The translations under genes were made by a program, and so were the position numbers. The notes under the pieces are model-generated. The model was not told where the DNA came from and did not search any database. It saw only the letters and a program-made list of their open reading frames with translations. From Atractiella rhizophila (Eukaryota), in contig MU271357.1 in assembly GCA_021432655.1 (NCBI GenBank), forward strand, positions 1 to 64,000: a DNA stretch of 64,000 nucleotides. Reading direction: 5' to 3'. Positions within the stretch are counted from its first letter, which is position 1, and each line of letters begins with the position of its first letter. Of this stretch, positions 1,842 through 36,830 are shown piece by piece.

Positions 1842-3978
1842 CTTTTAAGGTTGGTTGCGAAGTTGGAGGAAGAGAGAATGAGAATGAGCGTGGAGCCGGC
1901 CGGCAGCCTGCTTTGAAGATGAAGATGGTTCGAATGAAGTGGTTCTACCAAAGAAAGAGGCGATGGATGGCTGCTCAGACGTCGTGACCCCGAGGCTCAG
2001 CTGAGAAGGAAACACACCTCGTCCTCTGGAAGGCTAACAGCTCCCCTGGATATTCCACTTGAGTGCTCCCAGCAGTGCCTATATCCTTCGTGCGAAAGCG
2101 ACTGATGAAAGGGAGAGAAATCGTCGCCAAGTGGTCGATGAAACTTGCTTGGCCTTGTTTGCTCCTCGTACAATATTCATCTGCTTCCGTCGGGTTAATG
2201 TCATCGCAATGACACCTTGTTCACCACTGTCCACCCACACGTTTAAACGTGGAGGACTGTCTGACGATGGTGTGCCGTTGCAGATATACAGGAAGGATTG
2301 GAATCTTAAGCTGGTCCGTTTCTCAGCTCAGTGTGACAAAGGCACGTTATTAGGTAGAGCCTTTGGACTATCCAGATTATTCAAGTTGTTCCTTAAATGA
2401 TGATAAAATGCGATGTGTGGGGCACAAGCCGAGGTCTGCTCCAGCAGAGTGCTTGCTGAGCCTGAGCCTTTCTTGACCTTGGATTGAGGATGTTAAGACG
2501 CCACGAATGCCTTGCAAAGATCAAACATACTTCAGGCTACTGATGGCAATCCAGCCCTGAATATAATGAAGCGCCGTGACAGGAATGCTTTGGCTCACTC
2601 TCATGGTGAAGCGTTTTTAGGCGTATTGTCGTGACTACGATTGTGCCCGCCCCAGTATATTTCCGACTCATTTAGGGCTCATCAGTGTCGACCTGAGGAG
2701 TAAACTCATAGGCGATGTCGTAGTCTTGATGCACCAACCTCAAGGCCCAGACATGGCCCAAAACCCCTTTCTTTGTATGGAGATGAATGAATTCATTCAA
2801 GCAGAGATACCCTGGTCGACACCTCTACAATTCGTGCCAGCAGACGCGGCTCATTTCACAGTTGTGAATGCTCAAAGAAGGCAGACAACGAATTCATGCA
2901 AGGATGACGTCGTGTAAATATCTTTGACCACGCTCGTTCTTGCTGAGAGTGAAGAAAAGCACACAAGCCTCCTCCTCTTCCACAAGTCTCGTCATCAGAA
3001 TGTCAGCTTTTGTGACCTCACTTTCTCAGTGGAAGTGTCTCCTGAGAAGCCTAATAATTTCAATGCCAGTCTTATAGGATCCTGCCGAAGATTCGAATTT
3101 ATGAAGACAGTCTCGGCAACCGATCTTGGGAATAATGGAAGACATGTTGTGAGGCTGGTCAGCGATGACTTTTCGGATGGATCAATACCATCTAGCTCAG
3201 ATGGTAAGCTGCCTCTTATCTTCTCGATACCTCGAAGCAACTGATGATGCGACAGATGACGCATTAAAGCTTGGAGCACTTGCCAACATGAGTGTCATCC
3301 TTTGCTTTTCGGCACTCAGCTAATTGGTTGTTCTTGCAAGCCAACCACCGTATTAAAAATCATTACTGTAGCTCGAATTCTCAAAATGACCTTTTAAAAC
3401 TGATGATAACGCGCTGTCAAAGTCCCAAGCCATTGACGGCTATCGACACGAATACACCTTGGTCTCCAGCTTTCGAGCAGTGTCAATTCAGGCTTCGAAC
3501 CACCGAGCGATACCAGGCATTGATGGATATCTGCCGTGCCAGAAGACCAAAAGGCCCCAATTCACCAGCGGTATGGTACAAGAAGAGACCATATCAACGA
3601 CTGGGTTCAGCTCTTATCTTCGTGCACTGCCTCGTTTTACCGGCGCTCTCGAGTTACGGACTATGCGATACAACATTGGAGGCAGATGTTGACGCCCTAC
3701 CATCGGTGTTAGTGTTAGGGATGGAGACTGAGGATGCTCAAGGGTTGATTTTTTAATGCTGAAGCTGCGAGAGAGCAGGCAAACAGGCTTTTCTTCTCCT
3801 CCCCAATGCCATTATTGCTTGATACATTTCGCCAATGCATAACAATACAGTAAAGATATCGTTCTTCAGATAATTGTGAGCCCATCAATGTTTCAGCACC
3901 TCGTCACAAACATGACTGGTTAAATATGGCTTCATTTCATGAGATACACATCTACTAACTCCTTCCAACACCTTTCTG

Positions 3979-5322
3979 CTACTTTTTACCGTCGACGTAC
4001 TTCTCCTTGTATTCTCTTGCAGCTCCTACAATACCAACATCATCGGCTTTGAAGCCCAATCCAATGGCATAGCTGACATCGAACTCGTAGGGGAACGACA
4101 AAACGAGTCGAGTGTCAATCGGGTTTTCTTCCAAAGAGATCAACTTCGCAGCTCTTCATTTCACTCAGTATAAAATAGCAAGGCAGGTTGGAGAGACTCA
4201 CTCTTCACCTCCAACTTGTCGAACAGCCTCGATCTCGTCACCCTAAGTTTACAATCAGTCATCCCTCATGCAAAGTGACTGTTGAGAACTCTTACGACAG
4301 TCAGCGAGTATCCAGGAAGAATGACCATCCTTGAGTGCTTGGGGAACTTGTCGCTAGCTATCTTGCTAGCGTACACCAGGTTCTCGATGACAATTCTTGG
4401 CGTAGTAATGTAAATCTTGGTATCCGGGGGTACAGGGCAAGTGGCAGGCTTTCCATTGAGCGGTTCGCGAATGATGTCGCTCATAAAGCTCGACGTAGCG
4501 TTTGTTGGTGCGCCAGCTCGAGGAGCGACGGTGGGAAGACGCAAGATGACGGCATCAATGAACCCTCTCCGAGTGTACTCATTCAGAAGAAGCTCGCTCA
4601 TCTGATCTGAAGTGAGCAACACATCACTCTCGGTTTATCTAGCCGAGATCTCACAAATTTTCCCGTGCCGTACGCTCCTCCTGGTGTTGGGAGGGTAGTT
4701 TGGTCCACAACTGGCGGCTGTTTGCAAGCGCTGAGCGTTCAGAGTGGCACGTTCAAGGACAGCGTACTAGTGGCTGTCCAAAGACTCCGATTGAGGAGGT
4801 GAATACAAATCGGATTGGTTTGTCCTTTTTAAGATGTCTCGCTTGATCGGCCAATGCTCGCACAGAATCGAAATTGACCTGGTTGGCACCTAAGCTCAAG
4901 CCATTTTTGGACAATGTCCACTTACACTTATCCCAAAGTCGAAGTCCTGCTCGCTACCCCGGCTCATAATGCCGTGACAAGCATAAATAATATCAGGGAC
5001 TCCATAATCAGTTCTGAATAAGGTCTGAAGCTGATCCGCCTTGGTCAAATCTACGGCTAAAGAATGGGTCCGATCTTTCGCCTCTGGAGGGACTTCAGGA
5101 GCCCTGATGTCGGTGATGATGAACTTGGTAGAGGTCGACTCTTTGACCAGAGATTTGATCAACTATACCACCAAAGTCTTCTCAATTTGAAAGCACCAAG
5201 GACAGGGTGATGAGTACCTCCTCAGCGACCCTGATTTTGCACATCAGCGAGGACATCTCCGAGCGATCTATCAGAGGAAACACGAACCATCCAGCAGCTC
5301 CAGTAACCAGTACAACAGACAT
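3979..5322 (-). CDS. NAD-dependent epimerase/dehydratase (extended SDR, D-erythronate dehydrogenase-like); multi-exon
   Basis: MSVVLVTGAAGW Rossmann start, HGIMSRGSEQDFD, FVFTSSIGVFG, YGTGK (YxxxK), RLPTVAPRAGAPTNATSSFMSDIIREPL. ATG at 5322, TAG at 3979-3981. Confidence 0.85.
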
Positions 5323-19963: not shown

Positions 19964-22417
19964 TTACTCAAGCTCCTCTTCCTCTTCCTTCTCACTCTCT
20001 TTCCGTCGACCTTTAACCTTCGTTGTCCCCAAACGACCGGCCAGTGTCGCAGAGTGAATTCCGAGACTGAAGAGACTGGGGCTGCTTGATTGCTTCCTCA
20101 TCCTCGCTAGGGATGGTCTCAAACCAGGACTGGGATGTTGTAAGAAAGCAGCATTGAAGGACTTCGTCCAATTCATGCTCTTCAGTTCTATGTCCTCTAG
20201 CCCGCCTCCTTCTTCGACTTCAGAGGACATTGTGCGTTTTGTCTCCCTTTCTAACGTCTTTAGATCCTTGCTCGCGTTGTGAAACCGCCTCTGGATCTTC
20301 TGATAGTTCTCTCCCTCCTCGGCTCGTATGCGAACGACCTCATCTCCCTCGATTTTGAGAACCGGCAAACGTCTGTTTTCGAATTCCAGATCGACTTCGA
20401 GATCCCGTAGAATCTCAGCGAAGGACCCAAGAACGGAAAGCAGCTCGGCGCTTCTCAAAGCTGCAGGAGATGTGGAAGGATGAAGCCGTTGGTGCCTTGC
20501 GAGAGAGGAACGGAGCTTGTCGATGGTATGGATATAGGTTTCTAGCAATTTCAGGGAGGGTGTAGGAGGACGCGATGACGAAGGCAGAGGAGTTGAGGAA
20601 ACGGGAGACGGCGTGCGCTGTGGGAATGGTATCGGCACGCCCTCAGATAGAGTCGACTCGGCGGTGGAAACAAGAGGTGCAGAATCGGGAAGGACGTGTG
20701 CAGAATCTGAGTTGACCTGTTCAGCGGGCGATGGAGATTGAGACTGAGATGATGGCGATTGCACTGCCGCTTCAAGTTCAACCACGACTAGACTTGGACT
20801 TGCTGGACCTGGAGAGACAGGTTCGGAAGTCGGGAACATGACTGGTATGGGGATGGGGACTGGAGAGAGGGGTTGAGACGCTTGCGCGACGGAAAGTGGA
20901 TCTAGTTGCTGCGAAAGAAAATAAGACAAACTGTCACGTCGAAGGTTTGGATCCTGTTCATCTGCTTTGACCTTGAAAAGATCTAGGTTATCGATTCTAG
21001 CCTTCAGAGCTTGCGGTAAGACCTCAAGAGAATATACCTCCTCTAGTAAGGAGGATATCGTATCTTCCCGGTTCAATTGCTCTAGACGCAGGGAAGTTTG
21101 TAACCGTCGATCTTCTTCCTGTGCCTTGTATTTCCTCTCCGTCTCCGCTAGCTTCTTTTGAAGTTGCTCGACCCTGGTCTGCGTTTAACCCGTGAGTTTT
21201 TATAGCTAACTCTGACAAGGAGAAGCGATGCCGGTCAGAAGAGGTTACGGACCTGTTCTTCCAATAGTCCCTTTTGCAGCACATTTAACCGTTCCATCAT
21301 CCCACCCACAGTCTTCGAGTTCCTATCTTTCAGTTTCTCCAAAGTTTTCAACAGGTCCTTTTGTGAGGCCTGCGCGTATTCCATATAGCTAGAAACGAGT
21401 TTATGAGCCGACTTCTCTTCATTACGCAATGCTGTTAACGAGGACTTCGTGTCTTCATGGGCTGATGTTTCTTGGTCGAGCCGATGTGTGAGGATCGCAA
21501 TTTCATCTCTTGCAGCAGAGAGGCCCTCTTGTAACTTTCCCACTTCCTCGGGGTCAGATAACGGTGGTGGTGTGACGACAGAAATAATTGATGGCTCTGG
21601 TGTAGAAGAGCTCATTCGGAGGGAGCTAGAGAATGAGCGGAGGAGAGCTGGGAGAGAAAGGTGAGACTGAGACGAATTGGACAGCTGGTACTCCGTGCTC
21701 CTGATCGAATGTGTAGGTGACGACGGCAGGTCTTCTCCCGATACGCTCTTCTCAGTCTGCATGACTTCTTTCTGTTCCTCTTCCTCCTTCTCCTTCTCGC
21801 GATCCTTCACATCCTTCAACTTCTGCTCCAACGTTCTTACGAGCTTGGCATATTCCCCCACAACCTTCTCAAGCTCCTTTTTCTGCCTCTCTACAACCTC
21901 TTTCTTCTTCATCTCCTTCTTATGCTCCTCGAAAGTCAAACGGTAGTGCTCCTTCTCCCTCAGTGCATCATTCGCCTTCCTTTCGAGTGCATTCAGCTGC
22001 GTTTGGAAGTCTGCAGACGCATCCGTAAGGGTTGAGTGTTGCGCGGTCAATCGAGCGTGCACAAGTGTCAGTTCATTTAGAGACGTGAGGTTGTTAGCAG
22101 CATCTCGTTCAGCAAGCAGACAAATTTGCCTGCATGCGTCGTCAACACATTCCAAATGATCAGTTTTTACTTTATTTCATGAAGTGAGAGTAATACTCAT
22201 ACCTTAGAGCGTCGACTTCATCCTCTACTATCTTCCTGAGGTCGGCTTCGCGCTGCAGCTCGTCTTGAAGCTGCTTTATTCGGTGCTGTTGCAAATCATC
22301 AGAGCTGAATGCCTCAGAGGCTTGAAGCTTTTCAACCGTCTGTTGGAGCGATAAAAGAGCTAGAGTGTATGGATGGTTTGATATCGATGTGCCTGGCGAA
22401 GTGGAAGCCTCAGTCAT
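19964..22417 (-). CDS. Hypothetical coiled-coil protein; multi-exon
   Basis: Three long same-strand ORFs (120, 306, 370 aa) joined by GT-AG introns. Heptad-rich with Ser/Pro linkers; no family recognised. Confidence 0.65.
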
Positions 22418-24131
22418 GGCCGTTGACGAGTGTGTTGCATAGGGTTCGGACAAATAATGCATGTACTGAACCATATGCACACTAACATCGAAGGCGTTTA
22501 AGATTGAATCATTATTCTCCCTTGATAAACCCATAAATTCATGTCTTGCTCTGGTCCTGTTACTCCTAATCTATTTTACATGTGCCTGGCGCTGCCTCTC
22601 GTTCCTGCCGGAAGCACATATTGAGTCTCTTCATTATTTCCATACTAAAGACGGAGTCACTGCGAGAAAGCTAGATTTTCAATGTTTCCACTTTGCTGGA
22701 CTTTAACACAGAGTTAGAAACATCCAACGGAGCCTAGCTACTGAATCGACCTCAGACATTTTGCAGTGTCTTGACTGCAAGGACCCTTTGACGGGAAGCC
22801 ATCCCTATTTTGACGCCATAAGGAACCCTTCCTGACGCAGATGGGTTGCCCTATACAGTTGCATGCTCCAGTCGCTCCAGTCATAGCACCTCTGGGATGT
22901 TTAGCTTGGCAATACTATGTCGAAGACGTTCCAGTTTTATCGAATATATTGACATGTATCCACTAGACATTTTACAACTACATCTTACTGTCCCTCTCAT
23001 TCGCTCTTCTCCAGTATCTGGGGCATTGGAGGAGGTATTAAGAACAATGCTCTTTTGCGTGACTTTGGTTTTAACTTCAAACCTGGCTATGAATGGCTTC
23101 CACTTATGGGACGAGTCGATTTTCTCTTTGAAAAACATCATGGTCTTACGGTGCACCGTGCGCCGGCTTTCTCACATATCATGCTTCAGCCCCTCCCGAA
23201 CCACCTTAGAGTGCTCGAACTAGCTTGTTTAAAAGCCCAGAAACCAAAATTCTGGTCCTAGTCCAACGCACGTGAGTAAGTCACTGAGTCGCGCCGTGAT
23301 CACCAACACTCATCAACCAACCGCTCTCCCAAGCTCTCCCAGAGCTCTCCTTTCAACTCTCTTTGACCGCATCCTCTCTTTGCCCAACCCTCCCTCCACT
23401 GCAGAGCTCAAGCTGTCTCCTACCCCAAATCCCCTAGAGGTGGGGGTGAGCCTTTCGTCTTGCTTACCACCTTGTTTGGGGTCCTTTCAAAGCTCACAAG
23501 CTCTCGTTGGCTCGCAGAACCCTCGCAAGCCAAACCTCAACGCGTGAGCCTAGAAACCAAACACAACCACGGAGCAGTTTGAACACCTGAGTGCTCAGAG
23601 CGTTGGCAAATAGAAAAATGCGTTCGAATTTCATATAGACCTCGACTCACAACTTCGAACGCACTCCCAGTCAGAGCGATACCAGAACTGGATCAGCGTG
23701 CTTGGATGGCCCATTTCCAGCCTAATTATGGTGTGCCCATCAATCAAAGAGTCAAAGAGATGCTCAAATGCCGGGCAAGAAGTTGCAAGAAAATCGCCCT
23801 CGTCTTGGGTCCGCTCGAGAGCAGAAGAGCTTTGAAATTGGACACTTTGGAGCTGTTCTGCCGCCGCCAGGAAGACGTCGATGAAGAGAGGGAGAACAGG
23901 CCACATGTCATCAAAGAAGGTGAATTTAAGGGAGATGAGATGATTGAAGTACGGTCAGTGATATAAACGTTGGGGAATAACCAGAAAATCCGGAGCAGGA
24001 ATTCCAGTAGCAATGCACATTTCTCCTTTCATGGTTCGCTCGAAGTCATGGATAATAACGATATTAGGCAGCATTTACAAGGTTTTGAAAAATAATGCCA
24101 CTTCACCTTCACCCATATTGCACATTATCTA

Positions 24132-24144
24132 CACTGCCAACTGA
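24132..24144 (+). repeat. Left terminal inverted repeat (13 bp)
   Basis: CACTGCCAACTGA preceded by TA. Confidence 0.88.
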
Positions 24145-25021
24145 AAATCTCCTGTGTCTGGCCAAATTTTGAAAATCTGGACACGGACCAAAATTTCGGC
24201 TAGGCGGCCCCATTCTGTCGATGACGACTGCGCACATTGTCGCAGTCGATCCGTGTACGGATCCACTCTCCTCACAACGTCAGTTGGCTTCTGTCAACCT
24301 ATCCGTCTATGCAATGCACACTGCTGTTGTAGACTTACACCGTAAGTCTCAACCTGCCAACTACCTTGTCATTGTAATGCATACAGCTGTTGCCAGCTGA
24401 CACCACCTGTCTCGAGCTAACTGCAACACATTTAGTGGACCGTAAGCGATCACAAGCGCCTACAACTGCCTGCGTATACCTGCTACGTTGCAAATAGTGG
24501 AAGTTATCCAAATCACAACTCTGCAACTCACTGAATGAATCTTGCCTGTTTGATGTCGATACATCATATTGTACGAGAGTACTCCTTAATCTATATTATT
24601 TCATTGTGATTTCAGCTTTGGGTTATATAAACCTTTTACTTATGAATAAGCTGTTTGATGGGAAGAGTGACAAATCAAAATAAAACAGAGACATATGGGA
24701 TCGCGTTGAGTATTCACTTGTCGATTGGAAGAGTAACAAAAAAAATGCAAGTGATATATAGACGAGTGTAACAATGAGAAAACGTAGAGACATCATTGAA
24801 TACGTTGTGAACTTGTCGATAGGGATGTAGACGTTTGTAACTTTGACAAAATGACATATGTTGGAATGGACAGGTTATAAACGATGTAATGAAGAATTGT
24901 TACTTGAAATATTTTGACAGTGCTGAACATCGAATGATAGTAACAAAACGATCAGTGAGAAAAAACAAAGAAACAAAACGATAAAAAAATGAATATGAGT
25001 GTTAAGTCGTTCGAAGATTGA

Positions 25022-26614
25022 CTAGGTGATGGGGGCATTGCGCCTTCGCTTCTTCTGACGCTGATTCTGTTTTGTTTTACGGCAGTTGGAGATACTGCTG
25101 TTAGTTTGCATTACCAGCATGCACATTTCCTTGCTCTCTTCACACGCAATATCCTCGACCGAAGGGAGTTGATCGATGTGTTCTAAGGTCGTTTCATCTT
25201 CATCATTTCCATACCTCTCAAGGTCTTCGCAAATAGTTTCTTCGTAAAACCTTGCAAGCAATCAATCTATGTTTGAACAGGTAACTGAGTACTTACTCTC
25301 GTACCTTATCCGGTTTGGTCTTCTTCAGTTCCATCAGATTGCGCACATTCTTGTCGACCTCAGCAAACCAGTCGTCTGTCCAATCTCCTTTTCCACCGAT
25401 TGGGAGTTCCTCAGATCCCGCGGCACGACGCTGAGATTACTATCAGTAAGGAATTGGCATAGCTATATCATCAATGGCTTACCCAGTGGGCAAAATGTGC
25501 GTACAACTGATAAGTCGGGGTTACAGCGAAAGCGTTGCTGCGCCGTGTTGTAAGGGTGTCCACTAGTTTTGCAAGGGACCATAACTGTTTGACTGAATTG
25601 GCAAGCTAAATATGTGATCGTTATTTTATTTCGTGAGGACATCGAAGCAGGAAGACGGCTTACTATGACTTTAGTTTGACTGCGAAGGTCGTCGAAAGCG
25701 GAATGGGCTACTTTCCTGAACTCTTCGAACGTTGTGGAGCCTACTTCTTGAAGGCACTTTTTGGCCGGTCCCAGTAAATGAGGATGCTTATTGAAGAATG
25801 CCTGGCACACGAAGATATCAGTAGGTTAAGAGTTATAGTGAGGTGGACTTACTTGAAGAGTCCTGAATAGATATGTGTTGTTGGCTGCGAAAGGGAGACC
25901 AGGGGTCCAGAAGACTAAGCAGCACATCTTCCTAATAGTATCCTACTCAGATGTCAGTAATCTGTTCCTTCTTTAGCAGCGAATGATATAACATACAATC
26001 ATGGTTTGGTCGATGTGGACCGCCTGCTGCATGATGCCTTCCATTCTGTCGAATAGCAACTCCGATCGCTCATGTCGATGCAAATTGAGTGCTAAGTCCA
26101 TGACCTCGTGGCGGCGTCGAATGAGGGGTTTAGGCTTCTTTTGAGGTCTCCCATCATCGTCGTATTCGACATATTCTGGATTCACGACCAGCTCGCTCTG
26201 GTATTCTGCATATGATACCTGTATCCTCACATTAGACTTGATGAAAGGATGGTCGAATGAAAGATATATACGTAACGTTTCTTCGAAAGCTTGGAGAAGG
26301 AACCTGCGACTAGGGATTGATAGCTTTTGTCCGCGAGCTATCTCTTCAAGATCGTAAGGAAGCTCCACATCTTGTTCCACAGATAAATCTGAAGAGTTTG
26401 TTTCATTGCGCCCCCGACGAATTCGAGAGGATGTAGCTATGGAGGAGAACGATCCAAAACGAGTTAACGGGTTCGGACCTTCATCGTCTTCATTTTCCTC
26501 CTCCTCCTCATCTTCTCTTCCATCCTCCTCTCCTCCTCCTCGTTCTTCTTCTCCTTCCTGTTCTCCTTCCGTCTGTTTCTCATGTGTCCTAGAGAGGACT
26601 GGTCGAGGAGCCAT
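25022..26614 (-). CDS. Transposon accessory protein (ORF2, possibly TnpA-like); about 6 exons
   Basis: Spliced path MAPRPVLS...HIDQTMI-DTIRKMCCLVFW...-AFFNKHPH...-LANSVKQLW...AHFAHW-...DWFAEVDKN...-LARFYEETICEDLERYG...QKKRRRNAPIT*. Acidic N-terminus and basic NLS-like tail; inside the TIRs. Confidence 0.7.
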
Positions 26615-26786
26615 TGTGATTGAATTGTAAGACGTTGCTTTTGTAAGATGTATTGTTAGAATGAAAGGGGATGTTGATGTTGGACGTTTTTTGGGGGCTA
26701 AAATTCTAGAGACAACTTGAGATGATTTATCAACGTTTAAGCTGTGTCGATATCTTACTCCTCAGACTTCATAATACTAGTCCGAA

Positions 26787-29700
26787 ATGGTTAAGAAACG
26801 TTCAGACATTGTTGTTCCTGAAGATGAGCCTTTCTGTTCATGTCTGCGCTGTTGTTCATACTTTATTGGCACTAGATCTGCAGGCTTTATCCAAGAATTC
26901 ATTCATCTGTAATATCTGCCCTCGTCCAAATGGAGTACGAAAGCATCAGGCATTCCCACGGCATAAAATCAACACTCATCTCAAATCTCCAGCACATCAA
27001 GAAGCTCTACAATCCAAGGCAATCGCTCGATCATTCAATCCTGCAGCAAAATCCGTCTCTGCACCTCAGGGGTCCTCCTGTGTTCCTAAGTCAAAGTCCC
27101 TGAAGAAAGCTGCACCAGCACTGTTCAACGATCCGGGAAATTCTAGCATGATGGGACGACAGGAGCATGAGACAGTGGAGTCTTCAAGTGAACTTAAAGG
27201 AGTCTGTGTTTCCTTCATCCATATGTATCGTTCTCTAAATCTTGCTTCTATAGCCTCTGTTACGAGGTAGAGGGGACCCATTCCTTCCCGATTTATTCGG
27301 GGCGGAACAGGTGTTGTTACCTAACACGGAAGTCAACTCAAACATGTTGAGATGTTTCGATCCTTTTCCTCGTACAGACGACGTAAATGCGAGCGAAGAG
27401 TTGGATGAAGAGAAGGAAGGACTTTCCCTCAGTGATCTCGAGGAAGCAATGGAGCTTTTGGGATATGCGATGAAGACCGCAGAGGGTGTGGATTGGGCAC
27501 CATATAAGGACAAGAATGTAAGCTTTTCTAGCTATGTGAAAGGGTCTTACAACTTGTTATCCGATAGCTATTCCTTGCACATCTTATCAGCGCTATTCCC
27601 CGGCATCCAATGAGTGTCGCAATGTTCAAGCTGGTCTTGAAGTTTGCAGAAGCCATGGGAGCTCCGAATGTCCCAAGTTATTATGCCGTGGAAAACGAGG
27701 TCAGACGGATCAGCGAGTTGGTTGGCCTGCAGGAGCCTCTGCGTCATCTCGGTTTAAATGGGAACATTTTTTATACGGCTAGTTTAGCCAATGTCCTCAA
27801 GAGGGTTTGCAATTTCTTACTGTCTGTATGGCCCTAAAAGAAGGTGGTTAGGAATTTGCGAATCCTCTATGTCGAGAGCACATGTTCCTATATCCACGAC
27901 GCAACAGTGGTCTCTACGAAATCTTTGATGGCGAGTTTGTGAACAAGATCAATCCTGAATCAGTAGCTCCTCCTATGGTCATCCTTCCGAAATCAACGAC
28001 GGACATTCCTTATCACGCCTATGTTCACGAGCCCGTCCTCTTAAGGAATCACTCTCTTGTTTGGACACGTCGTTGGTTCGCTGAGGGAAAAGTACTTTAT
28101 GGAGAAGGCTCCCCCTTTGAAAAGAAGGCAAATGGAGTTTGGCATGTCGATATGTCCAAGCTAGTACGTTTTGACTTGACAGATATTTGCCGAATTGCAT
28201 CAGAGTTCAGTCCACAACTACAACGATCAATTTCTACTCCAAGTTGCGGTTTCTTCTATACTTCACATTGCCATCCCACTGATGTCTATGTTCAGCAGCC
28301 AGGGCCTTCATCAATCCGCTTCGTACAAAGGCCAGCGGTCGTCCTGTCTGGAGCGTGCCTTGGAAGATATTCTGCGACGACTTGTCGGGTAATCGAAGCA
28401 AGAAGTGGAATAAGTTATTCAATATCTATGCCCACAATGCGACCCTCGAATCTAAAGTGCAAGAGCTGGAAGGATTTATTAGGTTTTTGGCCACGTCTGG
28501 AAAAGCATCGCCGCTAGAGATGGCATCTGCTGTCGTCGACGAATTCAAGTAGGTTTATCTAATTCATAGGCATTACTCACATGTCTCCTAGTCACAGTTT
28601 TGCCGAGCCAGTCGAAGTCTACGACGTAAAGCTCAAACAAGTTGTACTCGTCATTCCCTGGATCATCCTCGTCGTTGGCGACAATCCAATGCTAGCTGAA
28701 TTGGCTAGTCACATTGGTTGTATTGCTAACTTCCCCTGCCGTATATGCACTGTTGGAGGACCAAAGAAACACAAGAAGTCAGAGGAAGGATTTGCAGAGC
28801 TGTTGCAAGTTAGTCACTTCTTTTTGTGTACCTACTTTTTCTTATAATTTCTAATCCAGTCAGGTCCTAAACGTTCAAACAAGTACATAATATCCACTAA
28901 CAATCAGTACTTCGAGGCTGCACGATCAGGTATCAAAACGAACGTCAAACGAGTTCAGGAGGAGACGGGTGTTCGAGACGGCATTGCCCACCCATTGGTG
29001 GAAGGACTATTGAAGAAAAGTGTTGGAATGAAGCAGTCAACTGCGAAGGAAAGAGATCAAGAACTTGACAAATGTCTCGACAGTATCTTGGATCAAGCAC
29101 ATCAGAATCCATTCTTAACGCACGTTGAAGGTAAGTATTACAATCTCAATCGCATGATCATTGACTTGTACGAACTGCAGGGTTTGATATAACTCAACAA
29201 ACTCCTGTCGAAATATTACACACCATTCTGCTTGGCATCGTCAAGTATCTATGGGGTCGAACAGTTTATCGGATCCACGACGACTTCAAGAAACGTCTAC
29301 AAATTCAACTTGAAGCTGCCTCCACCGCTGGTCTCGACGCTGGACAAACGATCAACGCGGCATACTACATCCAATACGCTGGTTCTCTGATTGGGAAGGA
29401 GCTCAAGATTCTCATGCAAGTCATGCCTTGGGCATGTCGCCCCCTCGTTGATGATGGTTTGATGAAGGAGGAGATTTGGGAGCTATGGAGGGTGTTGGGC
29501 TCGTTTACATCTCGTCTATTGGTTCCCGGGATTCCCCAAGACGAGATCGAGAGCTATATGGTGTGTATTTAATCCAAAGAATGCATAACACTGATGTTGG
29601 GAGCAGAGGGATCTGGACAACGCTTTGGGGAACCTGTTTTACTCTGCCGCTAGAGTGATTCCAGGAAGTATAACGAGCAAACTGAAATGGCATCTTTGCG

Positions 29701-31530
29701 TCCACATTCGCGACAATATTCAGCACTTTGGACCTGCGAAGGGGTTCAACACTGAAATGGATGAGAAATTCAATGGAGTTGCTCGAAATGCTTTCGTTTT
29801 TTTCGAACCGAATGGCCTACAGTCGTGACACTGCAAGAACGATGGAGGAGCAGGAGGCGATCAGGCATATTATTTCGAATGGGTTTTATTTTGATCCTGT
29901 CACCAATGGGTATCGTCAGCCAGGAAAGGATCTCATTGCCTTTATAGACGGTAATCCAATATGGATCTCCCTTTATGGGCTTCAGAAAAAGCATACTTTG
30001 GTTCCAGGTATGTACTTTCATGATCTGCACCACAAACTAATCTGAAATAGGCACACTATCTTTCAAAAATAAGGCGGAATCGAAAGAGTTCGACTACGAA
30101 GTATTGCAACCTGTGGGATTGACCCCATCTCAGGAGGATATCACTCATTATGGCTTTCGGGAAGCTGACGCACTCATCACTAGGGAACGCGAAAAGTGTG
30201 TCGTAGGAGACTTCGTACACCTCACGACTTGTAAAGGCAATAACACTGTCAGTCGTTGCACTTATCGAACAATAACTAATCAGCTACCTATATTAAGAGC
30301 CAGGAAAATACTTATAACCCCTGCATTGCTCGGATTCGACGCATAGTCAGTTCCCAGCCTCAACAGCAAACACAACTCTCCTATCCATTTGATCAGAATT
30401 TTGTCGAGCTGGAATGCTATCACCTTGTTACAACGGAAGATGAATATTACAAGGCACCTGTGCTTGAACGGTTATCGCGACGAATGGCAGTACCTGTCTC
30501 TGTAAGCTGCTATCTCTTGGTGCAATCAAACTTACACTCAGGCGATAACAATAGGACATTCAGTGCAGGGTAAATGCCAACCACGATTGTCACTCGGCCA
30601 GTTGCTTGATTCAAGAAGACGGTGCAGCTACTCGACAAGAACGAGAGGAGATTGAGACAAGAAGAAAACCCAAAGTACGACACAATGATGAAGGGGATCG
30701 TATTGTTCTCAATCCTGCCATCACCCGCTCGTTTTTCATTCTCAAGCATCTATATCATCCTGTTCCGCAACCGCCCAGTCGTCAAGATATCGCAAAACGA
30801 GCTGTTAGGACCATGGCAGCAAGAGAAAAGGAGGAAGCTGAGAAGGCGAAACTGGATCGGACAGGAGAAAGAAAACGCAAACAGTCGAATCCAGAAGCGC
30901 TTGCTACAGCTAAGAAGCATAGCAAGAACGCAAAACAAGTATACAAGTTCTTTATTATCTGATTGTACTCGCTGACAATGGATGTACACTGCGAAGTCCA
31001 TTGCAGGACAGGCCGCTCCACAAGAACAACCTCCTCTTCCACAGCCGTCTACCTCCTATCAACCACCTCCCTCGGCATCCATGTTGTATAACCATCGATC
31101 TTCTTCTCTATCGTTCACTTCCTACAACCACGGCCACCGACTCTCTCCTCAGCCTTCCTCCTCTCGTGCTCCTTCCCCTCAGCCTTACCTTTTCTTCCGT
31201 CCTTTCAGTAATCAACTGCCTATTCCACCTCGCCCTCCTTTGCCACAGCCGCACCTTGGATTTCGCCCTCTCTCTCAACAGCAACCATCTTCGCACCACC
31301 ACTCTCATTCCCCAACATCAGATCAGGGCATTTATTCTTATACTTACCAGCAAGAATTGGACTCGGGACAAATAGCGAATGATGAGCCAATGCAGGATAT
31401 GGGACACTCTGACGCTGGATCACAGTGGTTTGAAGGGGCATCTACAGGGGAAAATTATCTTGCATTCCAGAGGAGGGCTATGGATATTGAAAGTGAAGAC
31501 GAAGAATATAACTTTCACGAAGATATGTAA
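26787..31530 (+). CDS. CACTA/EnSpm(CMC)/Plavaka-related DDE transposase; multi-exon, one apparent +1 frameshift at 29797-29803; 3' end approximate
   Basis: N-terminal CNIC...HLKSPAH zinc finger, EFANP, KIFCDDLSGNRSKKWNK, VGDNPMLAEL..ANFPCRIC, TPVEILHTILLGIVKY, KWHLCVHIRDNIQHFGP, TEMDEKFN...SNRMAYSRD, VQCRVNANHDC. Confidence 0.85.
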
Positions 31531-31841
31531 GGTAGTGATTTACATTCAATATCATTTGGGCTATTCTGTACTGAACTGATGTTATATGGCGAAATTTCTT
31601 TGCACATAAATTTTCCATACATGTTTGAATGAAATTGAAACAGTTTACGAACTGGTGTTATAACAATCACTTTCCGAGGGAGTTTGTGTGTTGCCTCTTA
31701 TAAGATCGTATCGGAAGGGCAACAACTCACTAATGTCGCTATCTACACTATCCATATCCTCCTCTTGCTCTTCCGGGGATAGTCTGATTTTTTGGGGAAT
31801 GGGGGCTTGATGCTATTCAAAGCAATGATCAAAAACATGAA

Positions 31842-32626
31842 TCAAGGGAGAAGGACGGCGGACCTCATCCCCTTCATCGGACTCCTCTCGCAATCTTTTT
31901 CTACCGCTGCTCACGACTTTGTCCTTATCCACGGTGGTATCACTGTTCGCTGCTCCAGCAGTCGTAGGGGGAGTGACAGGGTCAGGAGGCTATTTCATCA
32001 AACGTTAATATTCAGAATGAAGTGTAGAGTAAGAGAGAGACTTCGAAAGCGACTTACCATGAATAAAGCAGAGAGAATAGGCTTCTTCTGTCGATATTCT
32101 TCTTTCTTCTCAACAGACCATGTTTCCTGACGAACAAAAGGCAGTAAGGATAGAGTGATAATAATGTAACTAAGGAAGGAGCACATACACAACCAGCAAA
32201 CATCCAGTTTTCATCATCCCAATCCCATTCACTAGCATCCGCCCTCTGCTCACTTCCTCCTGTCTCCATAACTATCGCCGCCATTGGGTCGCGCTGAGTA
32301 TCTTGATAGACGTTATACATAGCCACCTCATACTCAGAATCGGTTTCGATCACCTGTATAGCTTATGAAATATGAAAACGCTGAAGGATGAAATCATGCA
32401 CATTGTTATCACCACATTCACTCGAATCCGCGTCCTGATGTAAATCAACTTGATAACCATCCCCATCTTTCAAAATAGTTGAAGGACTTCTATCACTTTC
32501 AAAACTGGTGAGAGTACGGTTAGTGCTGATAGCGAACGAAGAGTCAGCACGATCCACAGCAACAACAGCATTGTTGTCAATAGAATCAGATTCAAGGTCA
32601 TTCCCCTGTTTATCAAGGATGTCCAT
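31842..32626 (-). CDS. Transposon-borne hypothetical acidic protein (ORF3); about 4 exons
   Basis: MDILDKQGNDLESDS...-VIETDSEYE...EWDWDDENWMFAG-...RQKKPILSALFM-PPDPVTPP...GRKRLREESDEGDEVRRPSP* with plausible GT-AG introns; inside the TIRs. Confidence 0.55.
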
Positions 32627-33482
32627 CTCGTTATTACAACTGATGAAGGAGTCAGAGGATTGAGATGTGAATGAGGAATGCTTATTTAAGCTACGTTGAT
32701 TCTTTTGAGGTCATTTGAACCCTCTGGTACAAAGACGTGGTTGCATCGTGAGAAAACAGGTGAGCACCGTTATCTCAGTTGTCATTCCCTCAAGTTCTTC
32801 TAAACTGGCTCTACAGCTCCTGAGTTCGAGCCTCATCCTCCTCTGATTTCTTTCAAAGCAATAACATTGCAGAAGTGAATAATGACCTGATGAAGACGCC
32901 TTTGAAGGTAGTTCACTGAAAAACAACCCCTCCAGATTCTATATATTTTTATTTCTCCAAGCCATTGAAATACATTCCTTTAAGGAGACGCTAACAGACG
33001 CGAGCAGGGCAGAAAGTATCTGCAGACAGAAGAAGGAGAAGCGAGTACGAACGATGTAAGGCGGCTTGGACAGCAAGCGTCCGCCTAAGCTCCAAACTGG
33101 CACTGCTTACATGCTAAGGGGACTGGGTACAATGGGAGAGCTGAGTGGAAGAGGGCCGCGGCAGACTCAAAAGCCTGACCTAGTTTGTGGGAGGAGCTTT
33201 TCAGACTGTGTTGAACCTCAACGGCCGTGCACAGATCAACTCTCGATCAGTGACAATCTGTGACAACTAGTGTGAAGCTTGAATCAAGCCTCCGACCGGA
33301 TGTACGAGTCTTAATCACGAATCATATTGCAGCTGATGCTTATGGGAAAGTCAGATTGACGCTGACTGTTTCCTTCAATAGGCCGAAATTACGGCTCAGC
33401 GCCTGGACTCAGCCGAAACCCAGTGCAGAGAGGTGCGTCCATCTGCTTACTTTCGTGTGTACAGTGCCCTCACGTCTGAAAC

Positions 33483-33495
33483 TCAGTTGGCAGTG
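33483..33495 (-). repeat. Right terminal inverted repeat (13 bp)
   Basis: TCAGTTGGCAGTG followed by TA; exact reverse complement of 24132-24144. Confidence 0.88.
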
Positions 33496-33694
33496 TATAC
33501 AAGTCTGTATCCCCAATTCCGATGTGCTGCAAAGAAACACTAGAGCTGGATGGTTAAATAGTTCGGAGGTTTTTTGGCATTTGGTTTCGGCATGAAATTG
33601 TGAGGTGCACATTGGTCCAGCTTCGAGACAATTGGCATTTGCGACAGTAGCAGCCACTCCGCGTCATGGTTGAAGTTGCGTACTGAGTAGCAAG

Positions 33695-35010
33695 ATGAGA
33701 AGAGTTTCTCATTTGCCACTCCCATCAATGCTTCCAGCCTTCAGAAGCCCAAGTCCTCAGCTTTCGAAAGCGAAATGTTTCTCTACCTCGCCACGGTGTC
33801 GCGATCCTGTGCCGTGGTTGCTTCTGGGTAAAATTGTTGTTGGTGTTCCGGCAGTAGTATGGGCGTATAAGGTCCGTGCTTGTAGCTAATGGGTTTGACC
33901 GCCACTCTAACGAAAATTACTAGTGTGCCGTACTCGTGCTGTTCCAGCGACATTTAATATATCTTGTAAGCCCTAACCCAGTCGTTTTGTTTGGTCCTCT
34001 TTTAAACATTCCTGACAGTCTTACATACCGTGGGGAGTAAAAAAGCAGACTCTGGAAGAGTACCAACGAGAGAATCCAGCTTCGTTCAGAGGAATTCGGG
34101 TCGAAGAACGACTACTTCTCACGTCTTTGGGACGTGAATTGCGAGGCCTTTCTGTGACAAAAAACTCTCCTCAAAAGCCTCCTGCAGACCTAGAGTCAAA
34201 GTTTACGACCTTGTTATATCTGCAAGGTAAGTCGCTCCTCCTACCCTCCACACAACTGATGCATGATTACAGGGAACGCATCCACGCCTCTGTACCGTAT
34301 CCCTGTGTTCCGCTCTCTCATCCTCAGCTCACCCACACCTCTCAGGATCATATCCTATGCTCCACGCTCATATTGGCTTTCAAACCGCAACGGTGGCCCA
34401 TCACAACGCGGCTTCATATCCGATTACCTGACAGTTTACCGCTCCCTCGCTGCTTCAGAGGAGAAGGAGGATGGCCGTATCGTCATTATGGGACACTCCA
34501 TAGGAGCTGCATCCGCAGTAGGACTGGTCGACAATCTCCTAAGTGAGGGCGAAAGTCTTCCCGACGGGGTGATTCTCGAGAATGCTTTCACGAGCATTCC
34601 TCAACTCGTGAAGGAGATTTATCCTAACAAGTGGCTGCCTTATCGCTATCTGGGCTGGGCTGTCCTAGACAAATGGAACGCGGTAAAGTGGATGGAGAAG
34701 AAGAGATCGGATTGGCAACGGATACCGCTGTTGATGATTAGGAGTGAGAAAGATGAAGTTGTGCCGGGATGGATGGGAGAGAGGTGCGGCCAATTCCTCA
34801 CGTCCTTTCCGTGGCATTTTTGACGAGATGTTACGTAGAATCTTCGAATCTGCTCGTAGAGGGAGTGACGGACGTGTCCAGCAGAGAATGGTTGTGGTGC
34901 CAAACGCGCTGCACGACACCGCATATCTTCACTCATCTTTTACTCAGGAAATCCATCGTTTTATCTCAAAACTCCCGCAAAGATCGCAAGGGCAGAAAGG
35001 GTCTGATTAG
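33695..35010 (+). CDS. Bem46/ABHD13-like alpha/beta hydrolase; multi-exon (start 33695 or 33728)
   Basis: LFQRHLIYL, LYLQGNA, GHSIGA (GxSxG), ILENAFTSI, SEKDEVVP, NALHD. Confidence 0.85.
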
Positions 35011-35421
35011 TTCGTATAGGAAGACTGCGATTTTCAAGTACTGATGCGTCATGAATACAATCAACTGATTTCGAAAAAGCAAAAGATAGGGTAATAAGAG
35101 ACATAGAAAGTAGAATAAATGCGACCGTCTCGATATATATTCCTTATCCAGGATAAAAACGAGACGGAGAAATGTTAAGGATCCACAGATGAGTTTGGTG
35201 GTTGCATGTAAGAGGGAATATAGGCACAGACACGATCGAGATTGAAACCAGAAAGAATCGTTTTAGAGGCTATGTTAAGAAGTCGAGCAGTGCTTTGCGA
35301 TGCGTTGGTCGGAAGTACGCTCCACAAGAGAAGAAGCAGCAGAAACCAAAATATGTCTATACTCAACAACTTGGCATCAGCTTAGCGATCTAACAAAGGT
35401 GAACGAATTAAGAACATACAT

Positions 35422-36830
35422 CTAAGCCCCGTCAGCTGTAACTTCGTTTCCAATCGGTCCATAACCTTCCTGTTGAGGACCTTGAGGACCATCTGTTAAC
35501 GATCCATCCAGAGACTGCGCCATATCCTCAGGGTTAGCATCGGCGATGGGAATATCAGTCCCAGGTTGAGCTCCGTCGCCGCCCACCTGTCCCTCATCAT
35601 ACTCTTCAAACGCCTCCTCTTCCCTCAATGGGCTGCCCTCCATCCCAGTCAACAGGTCATCGTTGATCTCGTTCAATCCCCTCCGTCCCCACTTCTTGTG
35701 CTTGACTCCCAACCTCCTCGTCCCAGCTCCTCCAGGCGAGTTTCGCACCTTGCCAGGGTTCTTCTTATTCGTTGCATGACGACGGACTTTGAATACTTCT
35801 TCGCATGAGGACTCCCGCACGAGGAACTCGTGTTGCCACACTTTGGAACCGGTAGGGAAAGGCTCCTCGATGTCCTTTTGTTGAGCTGGTGCTACGCGCT
35901 TGAAACCGTAGATCTGCACGCGCAAATGGAGGTCAAGGCTATGGCTGAGATGAGGGGATAAGATGGCTTACATTCAGCTGCCGCGCCTGCAGTAAAACTG
36001 TATGTCAGGACAGAGAAAGAAATGATGATGGGGTAACGCACGAAGCTGGAATAGTCCTTCTGCTTCCATAGCACGACGACGACTTCTTCAATAAGAATTT
36101 GCTCGTTAGGGATAACTAAATATTTTCCGCTCGGTGACCAATTAATGATATTATTGTGCGGATTAGATAAGATATAACTATCCACGGCAAATCAACACAC
36201 TCCCAAACCCTGCACATCAATCAGAACGAGAGAAACGTACTTCCAAAGCTTCCACAAGAAATTATCCGTCCGCACTCCATCCTTTGTGTACCTCTCCACG
36301 ATGATCTTGCCATTCGCGTCCACAGCAGCGGGTCCGTTCATTGGGATTCCCAATGGCAAGGCATCCATATCGACGTGGCCATGGCTCTCTCCCATATATT
36401 CGACTTCCTCCTCATTCTCCGGCTCAGGCTCATATCTCAGCCCCGCTGGAAGAGCTGGTGCACGAGGTGCACGTCCGCGCGTCGAGTAGGGCTCGTATCG
36501 TGCGGTGCCGTGGTGATGGTAAACTGGCGGCCCTCCGCGATGGGGGGCATGAGGAGGAGGATGGGGATGGGCATAACCATTGGGTGGAGGAGGGAGGATA
36601 TGTGGATGTGGTTGAGGGGAATGGGAGTGTGAGAGATAACCATTTGAGTGATGGGTAGAGGGTGGCGGTGGGGGATAGTGTGGGTCTTGTGCTGGCCGTT
36701 GTGGAGGATACCTCTGCTCCGCGGGAGGATGGTGATGGTAAGGATTCCTCTGAGGTGGAGCGAGCGACGCTGGCACGCCTGGTGGAGGCGGTTGCTCAAA
36801 GTCCCTTGGTCTCTGCTGAGGTGTGTACAT
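35422..36830 (-). CDS. HSF-type DNA-binding domain protein; start uncertain, may extend upstream
   Basis: NFLWKLW..ILSNPHNNIINWSPSGKYLVI...KQKDYSSF-ARQLN-IYGFKRV, with ARQLN on a 15-nt microexon (35972-35986). His/Pro-rich N-terminus. Confidence 0.82.

Follow-up and report, generated by a model that had tools for sequence, protein, structure and literature searches.

Structure of the element and its ends

The region studied is a 64-kb stretch (positions 1 to 64,000, + strand; the window) of contig MU271357.1 of Atractiella rhizophila, a root-associated fungus of the Pucciniomycotina. It contains an element of 9,364 bp (24132-33495) with perfect 13-nt terminal inverted repeats (TIRs), a TA dinucleotide on both flanks, a predicted multi-exonic gene for a RAG1-like transposase and one further plausible gene (Table 1). 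The element lies between minus-strand helicase-like open reading frames (ORFs; 19964-22570) and an alpha/beta-hydrolase ORF (34260-34823), and is thus intergenic. It is a single cut-and-paste transposon, probably of the ESTA type, an EnSpm-like kind with TA target-site duplications (TSDs) that belongs to the CMCT clade, which holds EnSpm/CACTA, Mirage, Chapaev, Transib, Plavaka and RAG1. The name ESTA, "EnSpm-like transposons with TA TSDs", dates from December 2025 (Kojima 2025, PMC12730594).

The left junction reads TTATC-TA-CACTGCCAACTGA (24130-24144) and the right junction TCAGTTGGCAGTG-TA-TACAAG (33483-33497), while the 3-bp flanks are unequal (CTA on the left vs TAT on the right). An earlier reading of the letters alone (the sequence-only reading) had described the perfect CACTG repeats, the TA on both flanks and the unequal triplets in the same way. 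The exact 13-mer CACTGCCAACTGA has only two copies in the window by pattern search, both at the element ends. The repeat finder pairs these ends (I3) and also lists a second, unrelated perfect 13-mer inverted pair (I19). As about 0.85 perfect 13-nt inverted pairs are expected by chance in 10.7 kb (our estimate), a pair of this length is within reach of chance, and the repeat by itself is no proof of the ends.

The ends are proven by the empty site. Logan contigs from two public runs of one sample (X1 and X2), which contain 95% of the element's words, were placed on 21000-36500 at 80% likeness. One contig per run joins 24129 to 33496, with 9,366 bases skipped and 2 ambiguous letters. This is the length of the element (9,364 bp) together with one TA, and the empty allele retains a single TA. 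This joint coincides exactly with the predicted ends, and it thus establishes both the ends of the element and the 2-bp TA duplication. The sequence-only reading had proposed these very ends and this duplication for a complete DNA transposon, and had suggested checking the other haplotype for an empty TA site; the site was found there, with its single TA.

The word depth of the empty-site contig is 187.8 and 207 in the two runs, while the unique core of the element (27721-32373) has depths of 89-97.6 and 136-139, about one third of the flank depths (~257 and ~360). Filled and empty depths together approximate the flank depth, thus placing the insertion on one of two haplotypes in the sample. 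The insertion is hemizygous: one haplotype carries the whole 9,364-bp unit and the other lacks it. The two alleles do not stand at 1:1 (~93 filled vs 188 empty in X1, ~138 vs 207 in X2), which could be due to unequal nuclei, a depth bias of short contigs or some somatic loss.

Table 1. Features of the window's element and near-identical copy pairs of related elements (copy pairs in the numbering of their own contigs)
Feature	Position	Strand	Basis or remark
Left TSD copy, TA	24130-24131		Window letters; single TA kept in empty-site contig
Left TIR, CACTGCCAACTGA	24132-24144	+	Repeat finder, pattern search; boundary set by empty site
Left subterminal region	24145-24929		Multi-copy in genome; kept in internally deleted relative
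Orphan ORF, 213 aa from ATG 26614 (262 aa stop to stop)	25976-26614	-	Divergent from transposase gene
Transposase gene (predicted)	26824-30962	+	~13 exons, ~12 short GT-AG introns; family profile and GT-AG candidates
Core motif, D in FCDD	~28370	+	Sequence
Core motif, D in GDNP	~28680	+	Sequence
Core motif, CRIC	~28740	+	Sequence
Core motif, HLCVH	~29690	+	Sequence
Core motif, E in TEMDEKFN	~29757-29780	+	Sequence
T7 run, one-base frame shift against all homologues	29797-29803	+	Just after catalytic E
Right internal region, single-copy	30963-32675		Short or low-complexity ORFs only
Low-complexity ORF, 184 aa, P/S/Q-rich	30976-31530	+	No usable Atlas match
Short ORFs of right internal region	32363-32710, 32054-32362	-	No relatives
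Right subterminal region	32676-33482		Multi-copy in genome; kept in internally deleted relative
Right TIR, TCAGTTGGCAGTG on + strand	33483-33495	-	Exact reverse complement of CACTGCCAACTGA
Right TSD copy, TA	33496-33497		Window letters; empty-site contig
Copy pair L014/L015	L014 6066-13943; L015 220-8117		98.6% over 7,904 bp
Copy pair L013/L016	L013 247-7089		98.7% over 6,847 bp
Copy pair L017/L018	L017 6591-13085; L018 151-6660		96.1% over 6,515 bp

The transposase and its homologues

A word-based protein search with one exon of the transposase gene (29165-29572, 135 aa) gave 109 homologues. The best of them, P0001, is a partial hypothetical protein of Atractiella rhizophila with 100% identity, and the next shares 44%; the rest are nearly all hypothetical proteins of 700-1,300 aa from Mycena, Suillus, Hypholoma, Gymnopilus, Laccaria and others. 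Within the window, the matches to homologues are confined to 27568-30905 (+ strand). Joining the predicted exons, with X at a frame break described below, gives a conceptual protein of 1,200 aa, which matches the family profile as a single, colinear hidden Markov model domain (positions 93-1065 of 1109, E 6.2e-171). The boundaries of the first exon and the first junction are uncertain. The N-terminal exon contains a C2H2-like region, CNIC-x12-HKINTH (CxxC..HxxxxH), without a Pfam match.

Residue conservation was read from P0001 and 61 homologues (62 rows, P0001 numbering; the remainder are mostly gaps). The conserved columns are D16/D17 (FCDD), D103 (GDNP), C122-x2-C125, H345-x3-H349 and E366 (TEMDEKFN), where D17 is kept in 56 of the 62 rows, D103 in 55, C122 in 53, C125 in 54, H345 in 55, H349 in 60 and E366 in 59; EILH..LLG is invariant in the family alignment. 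The catalytic residues that the sequence-only reading had picked out in FCDD, GDNP and EMDEKFN fall on these columns, and the transposase contains the motif set of the CMCT clade (D, C(2)C, H(3)H, E).

No precomputed Pfam domain is recorded for any of the 109 homologues, and Pfam searches of 23 ORF pieces (E<=0.01) and 9 homologues (E<=0.1) gave no significant family, with three weak, unrelated matches below the curated cut-offs. Eight further pieces likewise contain no transposase, TET/JBP or DNA-binding family. Transposase_21 and Plavaka, which had been put forward for checking and which we take to be the Pfam models meant for EnSpm/CACTA and Plavaka elements, thus have no match in the 23 pieces and 9 homologues searched, nor among the 109 precomputed records.

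A shifted frame in a young copy

The transposase runs in one frame up to TEMDEKFNGVARNAFVF, and its conserved continuation lies in the next frame, where the window reads SNRMAYSRDTA vs SNHLAPSRDIA in the homologues, with no room for an intron. Read in this frame, the protein meets a stop (29826-29828) after 872 aa and lacks the conserved C-terminal third, and the annotated P0001 ends at the same break. The homologues read straight through the T7 site, and the uninterrupted frame by which an autonomous copy is recognised is absent from this one. Contigs of both runs span 29470-32723 with 0 differences; as they share one sample, they provide no independent check, and a platform-specific homopolymer error is possible. 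Since the rest of the transposase is open, the change of frame would be recent, if real.

The copy is young, being hemizygous, with identical TIRs and an otherwise open frame across ~1,200 codons, and it depends on a transposase from another copy if the base call is right. The sequence-only reading had seen a young, possibly active copy with intact ends and ORFs; its ends and its youth stand, but the transposase frame is shifted at the T7 run.

Structural likeness to RAG1 and Transib

The AlphaFold model of P0001 (AF2; mean predicted local distance difference test score, pLDDT, 69; predicted template modelling score, pTM, 0.54) has the strand order b1 (6-17), b2 (30-36), b3 (51-56), a helix (61-77), b4 (80-84) and b5 (89-99). 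In this model D17 would close b1 and D103 would directly follow b5, the arrangement typical of RNase H-like transposases; the strand order agrees with the RNase H-like fold for which a structure prediction had been proposed as a check.

Foldseek against the PDB gave 12 matches at E<=0.001, all of them RAG1 complexes (best 6dbt_A, E 3.4e-5, TMq 0.32), and among the 38 rows shown 36 are RAG1, BbRAGL or HzTransib, while the other 2 are chains of the small-subunit (SSU) processome with a probability of 0.08. VIA-align places RAG1 at Z 10.4 (root-mean-square deviation, rmsd, 8.3 A; 254 residues aligned, model 1-361 vs RAG1 605-976), followed by Transib (Z 8.0-8.7), the P element (7.4) and the best unrelated chain (6.8). 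The core of the transposase is predicted to be RNase H-like and nearer to RAG1/Transib than to any other solved fold. These matches and the motif set agree with the CMC-like transposase suggested by the sequence-only reading.

RAG1, Transib and ProtoRAG (6dbt, 3jbw, 6b40, 6pqn), which give the best structural matches to the catalytic core, share with it the colinear order D...D...C(2)C...H(3-4)H...E. The element's ends begin with CAC, as do the heptamer of the recombination signal sequence (RSS) and the TIRs of Transib. The identity to these proteins is, however, only ~11-14%, and the element's protein has long extra N- and C-terminal regions. Transib makes a 5-bp TSD, whereas the element duplicates the 2-bp TA.

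The same comparison bears on other superfamilies that target TA, PHISTA/Harbinger or Tc1/mariner. These would account for the TA duplication, and PHISTA elements with TA duplications are known in Pucciniomycotina (PMC12730594, section 3.1.4). However, the modelled fold matches RAG1/Transib and not Harbinger or mariner, the ends are CAC...GTG, and neither a Pfam transposase family nor a Harbinger-type DDE transposase is found, the TA TSD being the only feature shared with PHISTA/Harbinger. We regard an origin from these superfamilies as extremely improbable.

Related elements and their ends

Metagenome contigs scanned with the family alignment gave 80 loci, 35 of which are at least 6 kb long. 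In three near-identical copy pairs with different flanks (Table 1), homology stops exactly at TA-CAC...GTG-TA, as had been anticipated for other copies of the family. L074 (1362-8869) has the ends TA-CACCGCCAATTG...CAGTTGGCGGTG-TA, close to the window's CACTGCCAACTGA, and additional GTG-TA right ends are found in L043/L044, L021/L066 and L025. Besides the window's element, at least 7 others are flanked by TA. The pair L061/L078 is among those ending where no such termini stand. The related elements measure 6.5-7.9 kb, shorter than the 9.4 kb of the window's element.

These ends also bear on another reading, in which the element would be canonical EnSpm/CACTA or Plavaka with a TSD of 3 bp and its TA flanks would be coincidental. 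Such elements share with the window's element the CAC(T) termini, here CACTG, the large, intron-rich transposase of many exons and the CMCT motif set, many of their families have a second gene, and the CMC-like elements of Agaricomycetes are usually Plavaka (PMC12730594, section 3.2.2). The fungal EnSpm families duplicate 3 bp (section 3.1.5 of the same paper), and the CMCT lineages as a whole 2 to 5 bp (PMC12730594). By the empty site, however, exactly 2 bases are duplicated, the 3-bp flanks differ, TA recurs in the related elements, and the Transposase_21 and Plavaka models have no match in the 23 ORF pieces and 9 homologues. A canonical EnSpm or Plavaka element is thus very improbable. Mirage, of the CMC superfamily, has a 2-bp TSD as well; its hosts are animals.

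Assignment to the ESTA type

ESTA transposases resemble RAG1 in HHpred, and most of the elements have CA..TG termini, as stated by the paper that named them (PMC12730594). Its supplement contains ESTA-1 to -17 from Puccinia species and Melampsora, plus ESTA-1_AB, with lengths of 7-12 kb, and the families listed start with CACCACGG, CACCGCGG or CACGCC (PMC12730594). The window's element has the TA dinucleotide TSD (on both flanks, in the empty allele and in related elements), the 5'-CA..TG-3' termini (CACTGCCAACTGA ... TCAGTTGGCAGTG, in full 5'-CAC...GTG-3') and, by Foldseek and VIA-align, its best structural likeness to RAG1. It also shares with ESTA the length range, a host in Pucciniomycotina and the missing match to the usual Pfam transposase families. 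Every stated ESTA feature is thus present, which supports the ESTA type. The element differs in its termini, which diverge after CAC(C/T)GC, in the absence of a TET/JBP gene (none of the ORF pieces matches a Pfam family) and in its host class, which is absent from the supplement (PMC12730594). The word 'Atractiella' has 0 occurrences in that supplement, and a literature search on transposable elements of Atractiella rhizophila found no paper. The sequence-only reading had regarded the element as the first definition of its family, a claim that falls to the ESTA name already given to this kind (PMC12730594).

The same differences could instead mark a separate, unnamed CMCT lineage outside the ESTA clade, namely the Pfam-less family of ~1,100 aa in Mycena, Suillus and other Agaricomycetes, in which the TA TSD and the CAC ends would be shared with the rust ESTA elements by descent or convergence. 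All non-self homologues (108 of 108) are Agaricomycetes or unnamed metagenome proteins, with no Puccinia or Melampsora protein among them. A search with the family alignment, confined to proteins of 2,374-5,000 aa, gave no match and does not bear on a link to rust proteins. The termini of the element and its relatives differ after the first 5-6 bases (CACTGCCAAC, CACCGCCAAT, CACCGCAAAC, CACACCCAAC), where the rust ESTA termini listed in the supplement are instead CACCACGG or CACCGCGG, and Atractiella is missing from that supplement (PMC12730594). However, the homologue search used one 135-aa exon, so that distant relatives were beyond its reach, Data S1 has ESTA-1_AB besides the rust families, and the element has every feature that the paper gives for ESTA (PMC12730594). 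A separate lineage is therefore considered unlikely. In the name ESTA-1_AB, AB presumably stands for Agaricus bisporus.

Several points weigh against the assignment of the element to a mobile, RAG1-like ESTA transposon. The shorter side of the empty-site joint has 28 letters, under a bridging rule of 31 letters; however, 28 + 2 equals k-1, which is the length that we infer for the short arm when a k=31 graph contains a heterozygous bubble. The two runs share one sample, which may also have been the source of the assembly, and the empty site is thus one observation and not two. The splice sites of the transposase gene are predictions from the sequence, and the interrupted frame may keep this copy from moving on its own. 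The TM-scores are low (0.29-0.37), the rmsd is ~8 A, the model has a mean pLDDT of 69, and the stretch round the catalytic E366 lies below 50. A profile of 62 family members gave 0 matches at E<=10 against PDB sequences, and the link to RAG1 is therefore one of fold and motif order only. Among CAC/GTG 12-mer pairs in the 35 loci of at least 6 kb, TA flanks (6 of 337) are as frequent as TC flanks (6 of 337); since this blind count shows no excess of TA, the family-level ends rest on the homology breakpoints. The 12-mer scan is the stricter one, a cruder TIR scan with 11-mers being too noisy. Membership in ESTA, finally, is argued from shared features and not from a tree.

Accessory ORFs

The sequence-only reading had counted three spliced genes, of which the transposase gene is predicted to be multi-exonic, the second is plausible, and the third found no support. 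The second corresponds to the 213-aa orphan ORF, whose N-terminal half is acidic and which has a possible GTATGT..CAG intron (25996->25802); it may be a gene, and its length is notable. A word-based search at lengths of 144-459 aa gave no relative, phmmer gave 0 matches against 1.84 billion representatives, no Pfam family matches it, and Atlas recognition 1669, with a best score of 0.85, gave no usable lead. The right internal region gave no support for a third gene. Both accessory parts gave 0 matches by tblastx and blastn against all 80 related loci. These ORFs are orphans that are not common to the relatives, and the claim that the element defines the gene set of a family therefore fails.

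Related elements have a second gene on the minus strand, with at least 6 exons, which lies upstream of the transposase gene in divergent orientation. It is carried by L074 (1790-3211, minus strand), L014/L015, L033, L010 and L017/L018, among which it is conserved without a Pfam family, and may serve the family as a TnpA-like partner. The 213-aa ORF of the window matches it in place and orientation. Homology of the window's minus-strand ORFs to this gene, suspected by eye from a MAPR start and from ILQRFH- and DDWFAEVDK-like words, was rejected as unsupported; the window ORFs match the relatives' second gene at E 1.7 and 6.4 by tblastn and at E 1.8 by BLASTP, and the best E of the second-gene exon profiles against 2,490 ORF pieces is 0.12. 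A nested insertion marked by the latter two words, which lie 7 kb apart, was also rejected, as no inverted repeat of at least 9 nt stands at the supposed inner ends.

Other copies and the surroundings of the element

At either end of the element, the outermost ~0.8 kb reaches 2-5 times the depth of the core, with word depths of 400-477 and 620-670 in the left subterminal region (vs 89-139 in the core) and of 224-375 and 313-464 in the right one. A 741-nt contig joins 24929->32676 with 82 other letters between, spanning 24524-24929 and 32676-32779 at full depth (264 and 433), and is an internally deleted, non-autonomous relative elsewhere in the genome. A further contig joins 27657->29193. A contig of 2,476 nt, matching 29368-29469 and 29688-29788 at ~80-84%, is a diverged paralogue.

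The left subterminal region contains words like the TIR core (TCAGTTGGC at 24280 and CTGCCAACT at 24354), and TTTCGGC-type words are common to both ends (TTTCGGC at ~24193 on the left, similar words at ~33383 and ~33413 on the right). Both kinds are candidate extra binding sites of the transposase.

Between the window and the contigs on 21000-36500, C>T (91 and 100) and G>A (81 and 78) differences are more frequent than T>C (56 and 57) and A>G (55 and 59). This excess, counted without sequence context, could come from deamination of methylated repeats or a process like repeat-induced point mutation (RIP).

At 23230-23706 (~477 bp), 0.4 kb to the left of the element, lies a high-copy repeat with a word depth of 1,855-4,687 vs ~257-360 in the flanks. 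One contig per run omits exactly this stretch (joint 23229->23707, side 29), and it may be a polymorphic insertion in its own right; no terminal inverted repeat was seen at it. The helicase-like region consists of three adjoining long ORFs (406, 313 and 132 aa), the middle one of which has a weak UvrD_C match (E 5e-4, under the curated cut-off), and may belong either to a host helicase or to a helicase-bearing mobile element.

Proposed mechanism and significance

By analogy with known systems, the transposase would bind the CAC-initiated ends through its zinc-finger-like N-terminal region, and possibly also the subterminal words that resemble the TIR core. It would cut at the CAC termini, as RAG1/Transib and other DDE enzymes do, and the excised element would be inserted at TA with a 2-bp stagger, where repair would duplicate the TA. 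The diverged paralogues and internally deleted derivatives in the genome have the ends of the element in common.

A broader and rather doubtful proposal is that the 'hypothetical proteins' of ~1,000-1,300 aa in Mycena, Suillus, Hypholoma and other mushrooms, together with the Atractiella protein, form a distinct, unnamed RAG1-like lineage. Its members would have TA-CAC...GTG-TA ends and a divergently transcribed, fast-evolving second gene. The hemizygous Atractiella copy would be the sign of a family still on the move, with its deletion derivatives mobilised in trans.

The element is a new member of a kind already known, and its host class is absent from the supplement to the only paper naming ESTA (PMC12730594). 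The locus provides an exactly delimited, polymorphic, RAG1-like transposon that duplicates TA, and a single sample contains both its filled and its empty allele. Each additional CMCT lineage that combines CAC ends with a RAG1-like core broadens the comparison on which studies of the origin of V(D)J recombination can draw; this element by itself is an incremental addition. The element also ties a large set of unannotated, Pfam-less mushroom proteins to a transposase with defined ends, and annotators could thus mask such proteins as transposons instead of counting them as host genes.

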